A stretch of 44,963 nt of DNA from Escherichia phage BF9, in sequence record NC_073083.1; one strand, written 5' to 3'. Both the position numbers and the translations under genes were made by a program. The notes below the pieces were generated by a model, which worked only from the letters and a program-made list of their open reading frames with translations, made no database searches and had not been told where the DNA came from. Below, in pieces: positions 1-44,963 of this stretch. Every line of letters begins with the position of its first letter. The first letter of the stretch is position 1.

Positions 1-1610
1 CCTTCCAGCTTCTCCACTTTCCGCAACAGGTGAACGAAGGCGGCGCACAGATCCATCAACAGCACGTTACTATCGAGAGTCAGCACATCGTCTGTGTACC
101 CGATTTCCTTTCGGTCGATTACAACTTCGTTCCCTTCCTCGTCCACCCCCTTGATATCCTCATAAATGGCATAACCCGGCAGCAAGTGTACGTATTCTGG
201 GTCAATCCTTGCCAGATCCTGTGCGATAAGGCCGTATCGCTGTACGTCCGACTCCTTATACTTGAACATTGCCGGAAGCCATTGACGAACGCGGTTGTAG
301 CTTTCCTCGCCGTCAGTGTATTGGATTTCTTTTTTAAGGTCGCGGTCTGATAGCGGCGCTTTCTGGAACTCGTTAACCGAAGGGTTGCCGCTGGTACCAC
401 TAATCAGCCTTTGGTCTGGCATAAAGCGGAATAAAGCCTCACTGACACCACTTTTCCACACGTGGACGCGGTAGTCTGACAAGTGGGTGTCGCCCGCACG
501 CACAAGTCCTGCGCGTGCCCAGTCTATATACCACCGATGCATTGTATGCCCCACCCAGTTATCTACCCCATACAGCGCGTTTGACAGACTGGTAGAGTTA
601 GCCTCTAATGCCTTTAACACTACTGACTCGCCGCCATTCAGGTGCAGCGCACCCAACTTAACCAAACTATCATCACCAACCCCAAGATTAGTGCGCGCCT
701 CCGCTGCCGTTGTTGCTGCCGTGCCGCCTTTTTCGATGGGTACGGTGTTCTCCGTAGCTACAGACCCCAAACCAAGATTAGCGCGTGCTGCAGATTTATC
801 TGCGACGTCTGCCAGGTTCTGCGACTTCTTCATGAATTGCGTAGGGTCGATCGCGTTTTTGAAGTCTTCGGCTTCATCCCGATACCCCTGCGCGGCATCG
901 CGGGCGGCTTGCGCGTCCGTCTTCGCTGTATTGGCCTGATCTCGAATAACGCCAGTATCAGTCTTAATCTGGTTCGTCTGGTCCTTGATGGTCTGCGTAT
1001 CAGTCTTGATCTGGTCCGTCTGCGTCTTGATGGTATTAGTGGCGTCGTGGATCGCCTGCGTATCCGCCTTAATCTGATTGGTGGCGTCGCGAATACCCGC
1101 CGTCTCGGTCTTGAAGCCTTCGGCCTCATTGCGAAATCCTTGCGCGGCGGCTTCCGATGCGGCTGCTTGTTGTTGCAGGTTGCGCATCTCAACTGGGTCG
1201 ATCTGTTTCATCAACTGCGACAGATAGCCCCATGACATGCCCTGCATAACCTGCCCGTTAGGTAACGTCACTGTGATTTCTTCAGCGTCGCCGAAGATTG
1301 CACGCCAGTTGTTTTCATCTGCAATCATCAAGCGCAATGCTTTTTGGGCCTGTACGGTAACGCCCATCGTTGCCAGTGACATGGTATCGCGCTTAACGCC
1401 ATCCCACGCAAGACCGGTTGCCGTTGGGCCGTCGAACGGTAACACTAGCGTAAGCGCGGTCTCGCTTTCAATGGACGCGATCGCAACCGTGTAAGGCACT
1501 TGCCCCACCACCAGAGTTAAGAAGTCGCCAGCGTTAAACGAGGTAAACGTTGTGCCGACCCCTACAACCGCCTTGCTGTTATTCGTTACGGATAGAGTTC
1601 CCGCTGCCAT
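1..1610 (-). CDS. Tail fiber protein with C-terminal intramolecular-chaperone-like domain; 3' end runs off the window start and is represented again at 44688..44963
   Basis: ATG at 1610..1608 preceded by GAGGA. Hand translation begins MAAGTLSVTNNSKAVVGVGTTFTSF, has a central run of degenerate repeats (IKADTQAIHDATNTIKTQTDQIKTDTQTIKDQTNQIKTD), and ends with SDVQRYGLIAQDLARIDPEYV, which resembles the auto-cleaving chaperone domain of endosialidase-type fibers. Not in the ORF track because the frame has no stop before position 1. Confidence 0.6.
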   Translation of the reverse strand, partial: MAAGTLSVTNNSKAVVGVGTTFTSFNAGDFLTLVVGQVPYTVAIASIESETALTLVLPFDGPTATGLAWDGVKRDTMSLATMGVTVQAQKALRLMIADENNWRAIFGDAEEITVTLPNGQVMQGMSWGYLSQLMKQIDPVEMRNLQQQAAASEAAAQGFRNEAEGFKTETAGIRDATNQIKADTQAIHDATNTIKTQTDQIKTDTQTIKDQTNQIKTDTGVIRDQANTAKTDAQAARDAAQGYRDEAEDFKNAIDPTQFMKKSQNLADVADKSAARANLGLGSVATENTVPIEKGGTAATTAAEARTNLGVGDDSLVKLGALHLNGGESVVLKALEANSTSLSNALYGVDNWVGHTMHRWYIDWARAGLVRAGDTHLSDYRVHVWKSGVSEALFRFMPDQRLISGTSGNPSVNEFQKAPLSDRDLKKEIQYTDGEESYNRVRQWLPAMFKYKESDVQRYGLIAQDLARIDPEYVHLLPGYAIYEDIKGVDEEGNEVVIDRKEIGYTDDVLTLDSNVLLMDLCAAFVHLLRKVEKLE

Positions 1611-11827: not shown

Positions 11828-12150
11828 TTATTCAGTCTCAGACGAGGGGGGCCACTGACCCCCGTCTAGTCTGAAAGACTGGGCTTTGTCCCGCTTGTCC
11901 CGATCGGCTGAAAACCGCGGCAGCACTGGCGGGGACGGGGCGCCGTCCCGCTTTGTCCCGCATCTTGTTTGTCCCGCTTTTTGTCCCGTTTGTTTTATGC
12001 ACGAAATCCGAATAGGTATGCACATTTGTGGGGTGGGACAAAACGGGACGTCCCGATTGTCCCGCTTTTAGATTATGCAATGGAAGTGAGTAGGTATGCA
12101 CATTTGTGGGGTGGGACAAAACGGGACATCCCGTTTTGTCCCGCTTCATT
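11828..12150. repeat. Iteron region A: about 67 bp hairpin leader followed by 10 or more GTCCCG(C) heptamers in both orientations, including a roughly 74 bp tandem duplication
   Basis: Leader ttattcagtctcagacgaggggggccactgacccccgtctagtctgaaagactggg, then ttgtcccgc copies and gggacaaaacgggac inverted pairs. Near-identical leader at 28280. Non-coding in my reading; track ORFs across it are repeat-driven. Confidence 0.8.
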
Positions 12151-15715: not shown

Positions 15716-16810
15716 TTAAGACGCTGTGGTAGCCGTCAGAGTAACCAGTACGCCCGCCGTTTCCTTGATGTGACGGGTCGGCACTGCCTGTGCGGCCTGT
15801 GTCTTACGACGGCCTTTAGTATCGCTATCGCCGCCAACGTCCTGCACGGTTGCCGGTGCGTTGTCTACCTGGCCCTGATCCAGTTCCCAGTTAGCGGAAG
15901 TGGTGATGTCGTCCAGTTTGAACGAGCGCACACCTTCGATCGGGGTACGAGCGGACGCCTTCAGACGATAGCCTTTAACAGCCACGTTGAAGTCGAACTC
16001 GCCCTGCCACCAGCGTTCGATGTTCTCGTTACCGCCTTTTTCCTGCGCCAGCATATCGAGGCCGTTGGTGGTAACTGCAACCGCGCCAGGGACCAGACCC
16101 AGCATGTTACCAGCACCCATAGCATCGGCAGCGGCATCGGAGATAATGAAGCGACGGCCCAGGCCATCACCCATTACCTGGAGATCGCCAATTGCGAATA
16201 CCTGTTCAGCGGAAGGGAGTGCCTGGTACGCAATGAAGTTTGCCCAGGTAACGCCGTCCATAAACCAGGACTTAATCAAAGACGCCTGATCGCCGAACTT
16301 AGAAGCAGCCAGCGGGAAGTCTGCCAGGGTCGGGAAGGTACGACCGCCAACGCCGTCAACGCGCGCCGGTTGGGTGTATTTTGCCGCTGCGTTGCTTTCG
16401 ATCGCCGCTTTACTTGCGCCGATACCCGCTTTCAGGTAGTGCAGCATAATCGCTTGAGTAGCCTGTGCCGCGATCTCCGCCGCAACGCTGTTAACGTTGG
16501 TTTCGATCTTAGCCATCATGGCCTTCGTGATTGCTACCGGACCCACTTTCGCGGAAAGGTTAACCGAGTTGGTCAGCATACGCGCCAGCACTTTTGCGGT
16601 CGCCGGAGTACCTACAGGGGCGTAGGCGTTACGGTCGGTAACGAGGTTGGCAATCAAGCCTACGGACATTTTCTCAATAACATCCTTCAGCACTTCACCA
16701 GTACCGAGAACAACAGCGCCATTGGCGGCGGCGTTGAAAACGTTCAGGTTGTCGGGGATCATTTGCGTAACCGCGGTAACGAGTTTACGCTGGAACACTG
16801 TTAAAGACAT
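15716..16810 (-). CDS. Major capsid protein
   Basis: 364 aa, follows the scaffold gene, RBS AAAGGA, terminator downstream; Ala/Gly-rich composition typical of HK97-fold capsid proteins. Confidence 0.8.
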   Translation of the reverse strand: MSLTVFQRKLVTAVTQMIPDNLNVFNAAANGAVVLGTGEVLKDVIEKMSVGLIANLVTDRNAYAPVGTPATAKVLARMLTNSVNLSAKVGPVAITKAMMAKIETNVNSVAAEIAAQATQAIMLHYLKAGIGASKAAIESNAAAKYTQPARVDGVGGRTFPTLADFPLAASKFGDQASLIKSWFMDGVTWANFIAYQALPSAEQVFAIGDLQVMGDGLGRRFIISDAAADAMGAGNMLGLVPGAVAVTTNGLDMLAQEKGGNENIERWWQGEFDFNVAVKGYRLKASARTPIEGVRSFKLDDITTSANWELDQGQVDNAPATVQDVGGDSDTKGRRKTQAAQAVPTRHIKETAGVLVTLTATTAS

Positions 16811-17612: not shown

Positions 17613-17699
17613 GCTATCCCCCTGGGATTGTGGCAGAGCGGGCCACCCGCTCGACTTCACGCTTCTAATATTATCAGCGATAAAAATAATCGCAAAATT

Positions 17700-17750
17700 C
17701 GCTTGCAATCCGCGTATTGGTTGCACTATATTGGTTGCACACCAACCACG
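17700..17750 (+). promoter_or_regulatory. Promoter with tandem TTGGTTGCA motifs driving the rightward gene inside the head module
   Basis: TTGCAAtccgcgtaTTGGTTGCACTATATTGGTTGCACaccaacc gives TTGCAA-N17-CTATAT. The same 21 bp core (CTATATTGGTTGCACACCAAC) recurs in reverse orientation near 28085. Confidence 0.5.
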
Positions 17751-21591: not shown

Positions 21592-22977
21592 TTAGTAGAA
21601 GTCTACAGTTGGAACAACGGCGATTGGGCGAATCACTGGGAACAGGTGCGCAATTGGATAGCCCGCGGCATCGTTCATGTGGTCCACACCGGCGGTTTTA
21701 TCCGGCTCGCCTTTCTTCAGGTCGTAAACCTGCTGTTCCAGACATTTCGCTAGTGTAGGGCATTTATCCAGGTTGACAAAATACTGGCGCACGCCCTTCG
21801 AGTTGCACATCATCGTATTCATCGCGATCAATCGGTCTTTCACAGGTGGGTTAACACTGTCATACTCCACCTCGAAGCCCGCGTCTTCCAGTTGCGCTAT
21901 ATCGGACGATGATGCGTTGACAGTCTTGCGAGACTTGCCGCTGCTATCCGGGTAAACGACAACACGACCGGCAGCACAATGATCGGGGTATCGCTCCTCG
22001 ATCGCCTCAATCATAGCCGGGGTGTCAAACAGGTCCACAAATTCATCCACTGCGTGGATCTCGTCGCGGAACTCCTTGTTTTCGGTGATGCGCTGCCGTC
22101 TGACGTACACGACCGCCGCCATCTTCGTGACGTTAAAGTCCATACCGATAATCAGCGTGTCTTCCGGCTGAACTTCTTCGGTGCTGGCGTTCTCCTCGCG
22201 GTTAAACATCTTGTATACAGCGCCCGACGTAAGGTTGACAAACAGGCCGTTCAGGTACGCATCAATCAGGTTAGACGGGTACTGACTGCGCAGCGTGTCG
22301 ATAAAGTCTGCCGGTAGGTGGTGGTTATCGGTAGTCTTCGCCCGGATCAAACGTTTCTGGCTATCCTTCTCCACTTCGAAAATCTGGTACATCGCCCGGA
22401 AGCCTTCCGGCGTGGATACGATGACGAACTGGCGTACCAAGCCCGCACGAAGACGACCAAGCAATTTGTGATAAGCCGCCATCGCTACGTCTTGCTTCGT
22501 GGTGTCGAACTCGTCGGCAACAATCCACGCGGCGTTGACCCCGATCAGGCGGGTATAGTTCTCCATTGATTCACAGATAACGCGGGTCCATTTGCCTTTC
22601 ACCAGCACGCTATAAATCTTGTCCTGCTTATTGAACTTCCACCGGAAGCCCGCCTCGTCGAAAGCCTTCTCCAGTTCCGGGTACATGATCTTAACCAGGA
22701 GGGGAATAGTCGGTTCTGTAACGATGCCATCATGACCGGGGTTCAGGGTTAAAAGCTGGATGACCTTACGTGCCGCAACCCATGACTTACCGCCACCGAA
22801 GCCGGAGCACAGGCCGAGGATTTTAGTCTTCGTGTCGCGCAGTAGTTCCACCTGGTGCGGAAGGCAATCAGGTTGATACAGGCGGACGGCCTGCGCAACG
22901 CGTGTCGGGCGCGGCGGTCGGTTTCTCTTTGCGATCGCTCGTTCAAGGGCGCGATGTTCTGCCGCATAGTTACGCAT
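21592..22977 (-). CDS. Terminase large subunit
   Basis: 461 aa; P-loop (LCSGFGGGKSW) near the N-terminus and an acidic nuclease-like C-terminal half; follows the TerS gene. Confidence 0.8.
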   Translation of the reverse strand: MRNYAAEHRALERAIAKRNRPPRPTRVAQAVRLYQPDCLPHQVELLRDTKTKILGLCSGFGGGKSWVAARKVIQLLTLNPGHDGIVTEPTIPLLVKIMYPELEKAFDEAGFRWKFNKQDKIYSVLVKGKWTRVICESMENYTRLIGVNAAWIVADEFDTTKQDVAMAAYHKLLGRLRAGLVRQFVIVSTPEGFRAMYQIFEVEKDSQKRLIRAKTTDNHHLPADFIDTLRSQYPSNLIDAYLNGLFVNLTSGAVYKMFNREENASTEEVQPEDTLIIGMDFNVTKMAAVVYVRRQRITENKEFRDEIHAVDEFVDLFDTPAMIEAIEERYPDHCAAGRVVVYPDSSGKSRKTVNASSSDIAQLEDAGFEVEYDSVNPPVKDRLIAMNTMMCNSKGVRQYFVNLDKCPTLAKCLEQQVYDLKKGEPDKTAGVDHMNDAAGYPIAHLFPVIRPIAVVPTVDFY

Positions 22978-23528
22978 TAATCACCCTGACCTTTGCCGGT
23001 AGGTTCCACAACGACGTCGCCGTTATCATCTTCGTCGTCATCCAGCGGTACATCGTCCCGGACGCCGTGGTTTGCTTTAAGCAGGAAGGTAGCGAAGCCC
23101 GCCGCGATGGTCACGCCGCCAGCTTCCATCAGGAAGGTTTTCTGTAGCTCCATAGCGTCAGCCATCGCCTCGGCGAACTCCTCATGTGCGCGCGCCCAGC
23201 GATAAAGGCAGGCGACGCCTACGCCAATCTTTGCGGCGAAGCGACCGAAGGTAGGCATCATGTTGCGGGGGATTACTTGCGCAGCACCCTTGTCGGAGTA
23301 GTTAACTTGCCAGGCTACGGCATCGGCAAAATAGCGACGAAGCTGATCACAATAAACGGTGCGGTAGTCGGTTGGGCGTCCACATTTGCCACCCCTACGG
23401 CGCTTGCCGTATTCGATCTCCGGTCCGAGATTGGTGTGTTCTGTTTGCTCGCCTGGTTTACGGCGCGGGGTAACTGCTACTCGTCCGTCCAGTTTAGCGC
23501 GACGGCCCTTAACTTTGATTTCTGCCAT
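22977..23528 (-). CDS. Terminase small subunit (putative)
   Basis: Basic N-terminus, acidic C-terminal tail, abuts the TerL start; start taken as the internal ATG (MAEIKVKGRR) of track ORF 22977..23549. Confidence 0.55.
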   Translation of the reverse strand: MAEIKVKGRRAKLDGRVAVTPRRKPGEQTEHTNLGPEIEYGKRRRGGKCGRPTDYRTVYCDQLRRYFADAVAWQVNYSDKGAAQVIPRNMMPTFGRFAAKIGVGVACLYRWARAHEEFAEAMADAMELQKTFLMEAGGVTIAAGFATFLLKANHGVRDDVPLDDDEDDNGDVVVEPTGKGQGD

Positions 23529-23644
23529 GATATAAGCCCTTTTGTGCATATGCGCCGACCATCGGCAACATAGGAGACGGCCCTGCCATCTAAGGGGATT
23601 ATAACAGGCACAAAAAAGCCCACCAAATCGGCGGGCTAGGAGGG

Positions 23645-28279: not shown

Positions 28280-28445
28280 TTATTCAGTCTCAGACGAGGG
28301 GGGCCACTGACCCCCGTCTAGTCTGAAAGACTGGGGTTTGTCCCGCCTGTCCCGCTCCTCTGGAAGCCGCGCCATCCGGGGCGGGACTGGGGTGCTGTCC
28401 CGCTTTGTCCCGCCCCCGGTCTGTCCCGCTTTCTGTCCCGCTTAC
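28280..28445. repeat. Iteron region B: same hairpin leader as region A (one mismatch) followed by 6 or more TGTCCCGC copies and one inverted copy
   Basis: ttattcagtctcagacgaggggggccactgacccccgtctagtctgaaagactggggtttgtcccgcctgtcccgc...ctgtcccgctttctgtcccgc. Lies about 160 bp 3' of the primase-helicase stop; three more GCAACCAAT motifs occupy 28480..28600. Confidence 0.8.
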
Positions 28446-28601
28446 TTTATGCAGTAAAACTGCATAACTATTCATTATATTTACACTACACGGCAACCAA
28501 TACGACCGGATAAAAACACTCAAAATGGCAACCAATGCGCGCAAATTTTAATCTTTTAGCGATATGGGAATTCCCATATCGGCAACCAATACACGCACAA
28601 A

Positions 28602-31608: not shown

Positions 31609-32127
31609 ATGTTTGAGCAAATCGTAAACCTGATCACTCGCGGCGTAGTAGCACTGGAAACCATCGCTAAACATTATGAAACCGTTGGCGCTGCCGTTGG
31701 TAAGCAGGAAGACAAGAAGCCGTCTAAGGCCAAAAAAGAAGTTGTCGAAGATGACGACGATGAAGCCGAAGACGAAAAACCGGCGAAAACTAAAAAAGCC
31801 CCGGCGAAGGGTAAGGCCAAAAAAGAAGTCGTAGAAGATGACGACGACGAAGACGCCGAAGACGAAAAACCGGCTAAGGCTAAAAAAGCACCGGCGAAAG
31901 GCAAAGGTAAGAAAGATGCCGATCCGCTGGCGGAGATGCGCGACGAAATCAAACAGTATGCCGCGATTATCGCCGGTGGTGATGACGACGATGCGAACGA
32001 CGAATTCGACGACCTGCTGGAATCGTTCGAGATCAAATCAATCGCCAAGCTGGAAGATGACGACGTCGAAGACTTCCACACAGAGTTAAAAGAAATCGTC
32101 GAAACCTATTTCGAACTGGAAGATTAA
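31609..32127 (+). CDS. Highly charged acidic/basic repeat protein (172 aa); first rightward early gene
   Basis: Two copies of KKEVVEDDDDE(D)AEDEKPAKxKKAPAKGK, then a DDDD-rich C-terminus; strong terminator follows. Confidence 0.6.
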   Translation: MFEQIVNLITRGVVALETIAKHYETVGAAVGKQEDKKPSKAKKEVVEDDDDEAEDEKPAKTKKAPAKGKAKKEVVEDDDDEDAEDEKPAKAKKAPAKGKGKKDADPLAEMRDEIKQYAAIIAGGDDDDANDEFDDLLESFEIKSIAKLEDDDVEDFHTELKEIVETYFELED

Positions 32128-34371: not shown

Positions 34372-35100
34372 ATGGCTAAAGTCAACCTGAAAAATGTGCG
34401 CGTATGTTTCCTTAAAATTTGGGAACGCGACACCCCTAAACAGGATGGTCAAAAACCGGCATACCGTGCAGTGATTCTTCTTGATAAAGAAGATCCGCAG
34501 GTGGACAAAGTGGAAGCGGCAGCGCGCGCAGTGCTCACCGACAAGCTGAAATCCGAGAAGAATGCTGATAAGTGGATGGACCGCCACTACGCCCAGGATT
34601 CGAAGGAATGCGCAGTCCGCGACGGTGACGAGCGCGACGAAGTGACCGAAGAATTCGAAGGCATGTTGTACATCAACGCCAAATCGTTCAAACAGCCTAT
34701 CATTCAAACGTCACTCGGCGAGAAGCAGACTGAACAGGGTCTGACCATCGACGGCGACGAGATTGAAGGCCAGGAGATCTACTCCGGTTGTTATTGCAAC
34801 GTGTCCCTTGATATTTGGGCATGGAACAATACCAACGGCAAGGGTCTCGGGGCGGGCTTGCTGGGTCTGCGATTCCGTGAAGACGGCGAAGCCTTCGGAG
34901 GTGGCGGGTCTTCATGTTCCGACGAAGACCTGGACAACGATGACGAAGACGAAAGCCCGCGTAAGTCCAAAAAGTCAAAACGTCGTGATGACGATGACGA
35001 AGACGACAAGCCGCGTAAGTCCAAAAAGTCCAAGCGCCGCGATGACGACGACGAAGACGACGACGAAGACGAAGCACCACGTAAACGTCGCCGCCGTTAA
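34372..35100 (+). CDS. Single-stranded DNA-binding protein (DUF2815-like) with repetitive acidic/basic C-terminal tail
   Basis: Start at MAKVNLKNVRVCF (RBS GAGGA), internal to track ORF 34351..35100; C-terminus carries two copies of PRKSKKSKRRDDDDEDD. Sits between the nuclease and polymerase genes. Confidence 0.5.
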   Translation: MAKVNLKNVRVCFLKIWERDTPKQDGQKPAYRAVILLDKEDPQVDKVEAAARAVLTDKLKSEKNADKWMDRHYAQDSKECAVRDGDERDEVTEEFEGMLYINAKSFKQPIIQTSLGEKQTEQGLTIDGDEIEGQEIYSGCYCNVSLDIWAWNNTNGKGLGAGLLGLRFREDGEAFGGGGSSCSDEDLDNDDEDESPRKSKKSKRRDDDDEDDKPRKSKKSKRRDDDDEDDDEDEAPRKRRRR

Positions 35101-42920: not shown

Positions 42921-43387
42921 AACTACTGATTTGTGATCTGGATGGCGTTATTAACGGTTCAAGTGATGCGCGCGCCGACCTGGTGCCGGGGATAAAAACG
43001 AAATCAACATTTTGGGCGAAGTGGCACAAAGCGCACGTACGCGAAGACCTGAACATGGATATGCTGCCGCTGTTGCGCATGTACAAAGAGCAAGGCTTCG
43101 AGATCGCGTATCTGACGAACCGGCAGCGCGAATGTTGGGACACCACCGCCGAGCAATTGGAGGTCTTCCCCGTAGGTCGATTGTTCATGCGCCACATGCT
43201 GGACGACACCCCGCCGCCAGAGTTTAAGGCGTGCGCCGTTTTCAAAATGGTCTGCTATGCGGACGTGTCGGAACTGGTCATCATTGAAGACTGTCCGAAG
43301 AACATCGCGGCAATTCGTCGGGCGTGTGGTGATTTGGTCCCGAAAATTTACGCAATAAACGTTGCAAAATTCACTTGCAACCAATAG
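42917..43387 (+). CDS. HAD-superfamily hydrolase-like protein (possible nucleotidase/phosphatase)
   Basis: N-terminal LLICDLDGVI matches HAD motif I (DxDG). Confidence 0.45.
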   Translation: MKLLICDLDGVINGSSDARADLVPGIKTKSTFWAKWHKAHVREDLNMDMLPLLRMYKEQGFEIAYLTNRQRECWDTTAEQLEVFPVGRLFMRHMLDDTPPPEFKACAVFKMVCYADVSELVIIEDCPKNIAAIRRACGDLVPKIYAINVAKFTCNQ

Positions 43388-43400
43388 GTTGGTTGCACTA
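43370..43400 (+). promoter_or_regulatory. Promoter/operator with inverted TGCAACCAA / TTGGTTGCA pair
   Basis: cacTTGCAACCAAtaggTTGGTTGCACTATAGtt: an inverted repeat that also gives TTGCAA-N17-CTATAG. Confidence 0.45.
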
Positions 43401-43450
43401 TAGTTAACGCGTCGGGAGGCAATACGGCCTCCCATAAACAGGGCCACATC

Positions 43451-43942: not shown

Positions 43943-44518
43943 ATGTACGGCGAATATGAAATATCCGGTAAACAATTCCACCTGGCGGCAATGATCGCAA
44001 GCATCGAGTTTGACCAGTGGCGCTTAAAGTCCGACTCGTGCAAGCAAAGCCGTCTTGTCGGTGTTCTGGGCGAGATGTTTGCAGGTATGTACCTTGAGGG
44101 GCAGGCGGGCGGGCGTAGTTGCATACCGCAAGGCTTACTAATGCGTACCGGCCTGTTTAGCGCCAATACCATCGACCGCGGCGATATTATCATGGTAGGT
44201 AAGCGCAAGGTTAAATCTGGCCCCGACTTCCGCGAGCATGTGGTCGATGCCGTATGGACCTACGAGGTTAAGGCCACCAGCGGCATCCGTCGTGGACTGG
44301 TTGAGGCGCGTTGCGCTCGCGAATATCTGACCCGTCGCGTTGCCGGTGTTATCCTGGTGGGCGTATCGTTCGGGCAACATAGCGCGCACGGCGTGATTGA
44401 GGATATTGCGGAACCATACGTGATTGTGAACGACTGGCCCCTGGTGGAAGTGGAAGGAAAGGAATATTACGAAAGCCCGTTGGTACGGCGTAAAATGGAC
44501 TGGGAAAACTTAAACTAA
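43943..44518 (+). CDS. Hypothetical protein (191 aa), possibly PD-(D/E)xK-like
   Basis: Track ORF with RBS GAGGA; weak D...E-V-K pattern in GDIIMVG...DAVWTYEVKAT; last gene of the rightward block. Confidence 0.45.
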   Translation: MYGEYEISGKQFHLAAMIASIEFDQWRLKSDSCKQSRLVGVLGEMFAGMYLEGQAGGRSCIPQGLLMRTGLFSANTIDRGDIIMVGKRKVKSGPDFREHVVDAVWTYEVKATSGIRRGLVEARCAREYLTRRVAGVILVGVSFGQHSAHGVIEDIAEPYVIVNDWPLVEVEGKEYYESPLVRRKMDWENLN

Positions 44519-44547
44519 AAAAGGGGCCGCATGGCCCATTCTCCTTA
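44516..44547. terminator. Bidirectional terminator between the last rightward gene and the tail fiber 3' end
   Basis: aaaaaaGGGGCCgcatGGCCCattctcc; the minus strand reads GGGCCATGCGGCCCC followed by TTTTTT. Confidence 0.6.
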
Positions 44548-44551
44548 TTTA

Positions 44552-44687
44552 CCTTCCAGCTTCTCCACTTTCCGCAACAGGTGAACGAAGGCGGCGCACA
44601 GATCCATCAACAGCACGTTACTATCGAGAGTCAGCACATCGTCTGTGTACCCGATTTCCTTTCGGTCGATTACAACTTCGTTCCCTT
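44552..44687. repeat. Extra tandem copy of the 136 bp unit that equals window positions 1..136
   Basis: Exact match read directly in the sequence; the next copy starts at 44688. Confidence 0.85.
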
Positions 44688-44963
44688 CCTTCCAGCTTCT
44701 CCACTTTCCGCAACAGGTGAACGAAGGCGGCGCACAGATCCATCAACAGCACGTTACTATCGAGAGTCAGCACATCGTCTGTGTACCCGATTTCCTTTCG
44801 GTCGATTACAACTTCGTTCCCTTCCTCGTCCACCCCCTTGATATCCTCATAAATGGCATAACCCGGCAGCAAGTGTACGTATTCTGGGTCAATCCTTGCC
44901 AGATCCTGTGCGATAAGGCCGTATCGCTGTACGTCCGACTCCTTATCCTTGAACATTGCCGGA
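44688..44963. repeat. Terminal overlap: duplicate of window positions 1..276 (one mismatch, C at 44945 versus A at 258)
   Basis: Read directly in the sequence; encodes the tail fiber C-terminus (track ORF 44621..44956, minus strand). Confidence 0.9.

Follow-up and report, generated by a model that had tools for sequence, protein, structure and literature searches.

Dhillonvirus is a genus of siphophages of Escherichia coli whose genomes range from 43 to 46 kb (PMC8594841). Five Dhillonvirus or SO-1-like phages came out circular in assembly, suggesting that their virion DNA is terminally redundant, and for one Dhillonvirus, Opt-212, headful packaging was predicted by PhageTerm (PMC9022532). 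The end of the tail fibre has a counterpart in pb1 of phage T5, where an autoproteolytic cut involving Ser1264 and Lys1269 removes a C-terminal chaperone of 133 residues once the trimer has folded (PMC4690869). The DNA analysed here, sequence record NC_073083.1 of Escherichia phage BF9 (44,963 nucleotides, taken at its full length and referred to below as the window), is a complete Dhillonvirus genome in the form of a linear contig that overruns its own start. At its end it carries an additional copy of a 136-bp unit from the 3' end of the tail fibre gene, together with a single base that differs from the contig start. We consider it probable, with appreciable room for doubt, that this unit and this base are artefacts of the contig end or paths followed through a minor variant, lying outside the consensus genome, and we infer that the true genome is 44,551 bp long, with one unit and an A at the variable site.

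The genome of BF9 and the closure of the circle

BF9 belongs with the recognised members of Dhillonvirus in genome-wide nucleotide similarity and in shared gene order. The first 24 kb of the window align to phage Pandora71 at 92.8% identity with 100% of the query covered, 128 records each span at least 80% of the same query, and between 153 and 163 GenBank phage records match the end region or the first 24 kb, nearly all of them Escherichia phages of Dhillonvirus. The gene order is that of phages Pandora71 and bov22_1, and 55 of the 62 Pandora71 proteins align to the one-unit genome as one unbroken segment that takes in 97% or more of their length; the remaining seven represent accessory-gene differences and none is divided between frames. 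A length of 44.55-44.69 kb is inside the range of the genus. Searches of complete E. coli genomes and of PLSDB plasmids gave no match to the phage, so that within those sets it occurs neither as a prophage nor as a plasmid-like contaminant.

The boundary of a phage species is usually set at 95% identity. Compared over the first 24 kb and a 1.2-kb end region, the best GenBank relatives are 92-94% identical, which is below that level, and if this value holds genome-wide BF9 may represent an undescribed Dhillonvirus species.

The record repeats its own start at its end, with 44688-44963 identical to 1-276 (the unit and the next 140 bp) at 275 of 276 positions when compared directly, which bears out the single-mismatch overlap described in an earlier, sequence-only reading of this DNA. 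Given the circular assemblies and the headful prediction within the genus, we read this overlap as the closure of a circularly permuted genome assembly, with high confidence on grounds of sequence identity and family knowledge; the large terminase is likewise of the headful type (Terminase_6N and Terminase_6C), in keeping with the prediction for Opt-212. The sequence-only reading had also proposed a circularly permuted genome, which holds in the light of the genus, the published assemblies (PMC9022532) and the terminase; where it also spoke of terminal redundancy, the 276 bp are to be taken as the way in which the circle was written out and not as the physical terminal redundancy of the virion DNA. 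Closing the record at the overlap gives 44,687 bp with two units and 44,551 bp with one. The features discussed are listed in Table 1.

Table 1. Coordinates in the window of the features of the contig ends, the tail fibre gene and the terminase
Feature	Position	Strand	Remarks
136-bp unit, copy at contig start	1-136	-	residues 494-536, flanked by two bases each of the Glu493 and Gly537 codons
Peptidase_S74 domain, residues 421-538	1-350; last residue and stop at 44550-44545	-	Ser421 codon 350-348; Lys426 codon 335-333
Lateral tail fibre gene	1-1610	-	ATG 1610-1608; passes beyond the contig start and, with one unit, ends at 44551-44545; 538 aa
Large terminase	21592-22977	-	matches Terminase_6N and Terminase_6C
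Terminase genes	21592-23549		~21 kb from the contig ends
191-aa gene	43943-44518	+	convergent with the fibre gene
GC-rich hairpin with T-run on the minus strand, terminator-like	44524-44537	.	between the convergent fibre gene (-) and 191-aa gene (+)
TAA stop, one-unit reading	44545-44547	-	from translation
Extra exact copy of the unit	44552-44687	-	adjoins the true gene end; relatives have one copy
TAG stop in the shifted frame, two-unit reading	44621-44623	-	from translation
Terminal overlap	44688-44963	-	repeats 1-276 with one mismatch; marks circular closure
C allele	44947	-	A at 260 in the contig-start copy; 17 nt from the contig end; Tyr451 (TAT) to Asp (GAT)

Several other repeats occur in the window. 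A dispersed intergenic element is found at 11828-12143 and at 28280-28474, the two places being 83% identical over 195 nt; it is made up of a strong hairpin, CAGTCTCAGACGAGGGGGGCCACTGACCCCCGTCTAGTCTG, and, after it, clustered TTGTCCCG(C) motifs. Exact TTGTCCCG occurs 11 times in the window against an expectation of 1.65, a count that none of 100 shuffles reached, and nine of them are located in these two regions, each on the plus strand; such motifs may be candidate iterated binding sites for a regulator. The first of the two regions also contains a 64-nt sub-repeat (11995-12058 and 12073-12136), both places match a 42-aa ORF annotated in Pandora71 (16531-16659 in the coordinates of that record), and Rfam gave no match to the element. 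A 39-nt repeat running from GCAAAATTCGCTTGCAA to GGTTGCACTATA is present at 17692-17730 and 43364-43402 with 79% identity and looks like a putative promoter or operator shared by the two sites. Finally, plus-strand genes of the replication region contain in-frame tandem repeats of 90 nt and 54 nt (31732-31911 and 34937-35044, respectively), which encode runs rich in Asp, Glu and Lys.

The 136-bp unit and the end of the tail fibre gene

The segment 44552-44687 matches 1-136 without a mismatch and is the third exact copy of the unit in the record, just as had been claimed for it from the sequence alone; a point absent from that account is that the unit begins at base 1 of the contig. As the extra copy adjoins the true end of the gene, 44552-44687 and 1-136 would be the same DNA in a one-unit genome. 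Tandem Repeats Finder reports 44552-44826 as an array of period 136 with 2.0 copies, 100% matches and no indels, the three bases beyond two full periods being CCT, a microhomology common to the start of the unit and to the sequence that follows it. Four 136-nt blocks upstream of the array share only 28-41 of 136 bases with the unit and show no resemblance to it, and an exact repeat of 136 nt cannot have arisen by chance. Slippage of 132 bp, in frame, between two CCTTCC hexamers (bases 1-6 of the unit, and bases 133-136 with the next two) was considered and rejected, since the junction observed has a period of 136 instead.

The single mismatch in the overlap changes a tyrosine to aspartate, as translation confirms for the earlier report; that report placed it at 258 and 44945, at the other end of the codon from its true position, which is 260 (A) and 44947 (C). 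The A allele is found at the contig start and in the relative bov22_1, the C in the contig-end copy only. Residue 451 is tyrosine in 11 of 12 homologues and phenylalanine in the remaining one, and because a non-conservative change at a nearly invariant residue falls in the last bases of the contig, the C is most simply taken as a read-end error, or as a rare variant that escaped correction where the coverage gives out.

With one unit the fibre gene encodes 538 residues and ends in VEKLEGK, the annotated orthologues in bov22_1 and Pandora71 also having 538 residues. Both translation and a scan for hairpins and T-runs support what had been described for a single copy, namely this C-terminus followed by a stop and a terminator hairpin. 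The hairpin looks like a terminator, predicted by that simple scan; folding of the 56-nt RNA context scored no better than shuffled sequences, and Rfam had no match in the window. With two units the frame shifts after Gly537 and Lys538 is replaced by 21 new residues (RERSCNRPKGNRVHRRCADSR), giving a protein of 558 residues, so that the frameshift proposed from the sequence alone is real in such a reading and the tail is 21 rather than 22 residues long. Exact-protein look-ups of the 113-aa ORF at the contig end and of the neighbouring 191-aa gene found neither on record. Copies of a repeat at 2869-2924 and 44507-44562 flank the module that contains the receptor-binding and tail fibre genes.

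The intramolecular chaperone domain

Over residues 421-474 the C-terminal end of the fibre scores 36.7 bits with Pfam PF13884 (Peptidase_S74, 'chaperone of endosialidase'), the cut-off being 22. Ser421, Asp422 and Lys426 are invariant in an alignment of 12 sequences (homologues 41-98% identical), and Ser421 and Lys426 stand five residues apart, as do the scissile Ser1264 and the activating Lys1269 of T5 pb1. A solved L-shaped tail fibre, 8hqz_d, aligns at its C-terminus with the last 115 residues (E = 2.9e-5), and a tblastn search with the last 118 residues matched 243 phage records, many of them T5-like, with 35-62% identity to many T5-like fibres. An AlphaFold2 model of the domain as a monomer, built on a three-sequence alignment, reached a mean pLDDT of 54.8, too low for a fold search; within that low confidence it has helices, four strands and a long C-terminal helix, in an order compatible with a coiled coil and a beta-hairpin 'tentacle'. 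By homology with pb1, residues 421-538 would be a chaperone that assists folding of the trimer and then cuts itself off at Ser421 with the help of Lys426, leaving residues 1-420 as the mature fibre.

The domain (1-350 in the window; loci L003, L004-L009 and L010 of our searches) is common to fibres of unrelated phages at 35-96% protein identity, including the T5-like Demerecviridae and the 50.5-kb Shigella phage SH6, with mEp021 and mEp515 recognisable at the DNA level, and, being spread over unrelated phage groups, it behaves as a mobile cassette. In one metagenome relative (P0001, at locus L010) the sequence diverges from the family over its final few codons (...KVENPF), and the gene downstream is a different one.

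The unit encodes the last 45 residues of the chaperone domain, and the two-unit reading keeps the whole domain up to Gly537. Since the domain would be kept to that residue and cut off after folding, the fibre of the virion is probably unaltered with one or two units, even if the duplication is real. The statement in the sequence-only reading that an extra unit would alter the C-terminus of the tail fibre was therefore too broad: it is right for the precursor and does not extend to the mature fibre, the unit lying wholly within the domain that is predicted to be cleaved off.

Origin of the extra unit and comparison with known systems

The unit-to-unit junction was sought in related phages and in public sequence collections and was found in none of those searched. 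All 15 phage records that cover the whole of a 1164-bp query span only 1027-1031 bp, about 136 bp shorter, and hence carry one unit; the alignment of bov22_1 shows the single unit directly, and none of the 153 related phage records matching the query contains the extra one. None of 28 phage records matches a 100-nt probe centred on the junction as a single piece; in these records the halves of the probe always map about 139 bp apart, in single-copy order. As an exact or slightly degenerate pattern the junction has no match in IMG/VR, in JGI metagenome contigs or in GTDB genome contigs, and the out-of-frame tail is missing from a protein collection of 5.8 billion clusters, where two matches cover only 83-87% of the query and belong to partial relatives without the tail, on short contigs and in a different context. 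A search for contigs of the same strain with a boundary between the upstream sequence and the unit returned none, and the relatives retrieved from IMG/VR, SSL-2009a and SH6, make up just two loci, which is not enough to survey contig breaks at this place. The nearest relatives are only ~93% identical to BF9, and their single copy is no proof of the state in BF9 itself.

The start of the contig is informative in its own right. In simulated de Bruijn graphs a node with two incoming edges starts exactly at base 1 of the unit for every one of the 13 values of k tried, from 21 to 140 with a pure two-unit genome and from 21 to 151 when genomes of one and two units are mixed, so that the opening of the circle at this point was not arbitrary and was determined by the repeat. 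This shows that the assembler met a unit-to-unit junction in its data, the source being most molecules, a minority of them or chimeric reads. De Bruijn assemblers do not invent junction k-mers, and some molecules or chimeric reads therefore probably held the junction. Attempts to derive the lengths from k-mer sizes (140 as k-1 for k = 141; 276 as 2 x 136 + 4) were set aside as numerology, no simple graph model having given the exact contig end.

In the favoured reading, that of an artefact or minor-variant path, the circle would have been opened where a few reads, or a minor type of molecule, carrying the junction made the graph branch; alternatively the assembler would have left the overlap at the closing point uncollapsed. 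The unit would thereby have been written twice, and both the extra unit and the C would fall within the last 412 bases, the least reliable part of the contig. The same contig start would be produced in a graph assembler by a true duplication, whether fixed or confined to a sub-population, and such a tandem duplication at the 3' end of the fibre gene, which the CCT microhomology would have allowed through slippage or illegitimate recombination and which would be nearly neutral and add the 21-residue tail, is the principal alternative, to which we give a minor though real share of the probability. The junction does stand in the contig with perfect flanks, for which graph assemblers need reads that span it, and the A/C site is a second heterogeneity that hints at a mixed population. 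The extension may also be tolerated: homologous chaperone domains carry C-terminal tails about 4-20 residues longer than that of BF9, and the cleavage site predicted at Ser421/Lys426 from homology to pb1 (PMC4690869) lies far upstream of the change. Against this, the duplication is absent from the related phage records and from every collection searched, would be the sole frameshift in the genome on comparison with the Pandora71 proteins, and is placed exactly at the contig ends beside an allele that resembles an error. The 100% identity of the copies means that any duplication is either very recent or non-biological, and the CCT microhomology fits illegitimate recombination in vivo and template switching in vitro alike.

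It would seem highly improbable that BF9 has a linear genome with physical short direct terminal repeats, of 136 or 276 bp, and that the junction arose by end-to-end ligation in library preparation. A contig start exactly at the unit boundary would agree with this, and the ligation of ends that bear a 136-bp repeat would indeed make a unit-to-unit junction; yet five relatives assembled as circles and one was predicted to package by headful (PMC9022532), the terminase genes are ~21 kb away, the 276-bp repeat is inexact, and the gene whose coding end contains the repeat is conserved and unbroken in all relatives. T7-like terminal repeats, by comparison, would be expected to be exact and non-coding and to belong to lineages with fixed termini.

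The main value of these observations is in the quality of annotation. As it stands the untrimmed record is 276-412 bp too long and splits the fibre gene across its ends; once circularised it would give a false, frameshifted C-terminus, and one of its ends has a probably erroneous change of Tyr to Asp. If it is cut back to 44,551 bp, keeping one unit and the A allele, the fibre again has 538 residues and agrees with its relatives both in length and in its ...VEKLEGK end, and we recommend that the record be trimmed in this way unless the reads say otherwise. No change of host range is expected, even from a real duplication. If the two-unit form were true, the phage would survive because the chaperone domain is discarded after folding, and BF9 would provide a small natural test of the tolerance of the S74 chaperone C-terminus, as well as a snapshot of microhomology-mediated duplication in a headful phage.

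Set beside described systems, BF9 is of a known kind throughout, in its genus, in the overlap of its circular assembly and in the S74 chaperone on its lateral tail fibre, and the extra unit alone is unusual. With the chaperone of T5 pb1 it shares the PF13884 match and the Ser-x4-Lys dyad; it differs in length, with 118 residues here, on a short Dhillonvirus fibre of 538 residues, against 133 in pb1, and no member of the S74 family in the protein collection searched has the 21-residue out-of-frame tail that two units would add. Like the linear genomes of T7- and T5-like phages with short direct terminal repeats, the record has the same sequence at both ends, whereas in BF9 the repeat is coding, has a mismatch and is found in a genus for which headful packaging has been reported. 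With the circular assemblies reported for Dhillonvirus or SO-1-like phages (PMC9022532) BF9 shares the genus, 92-93% nucleotide identity, gene order, the Terminase_6N/6C terminase and the repeated ends; the BF9 record differs from them by one extra 136-bp copy and one mismatch, neither of which a clean k-mer overlap contains.
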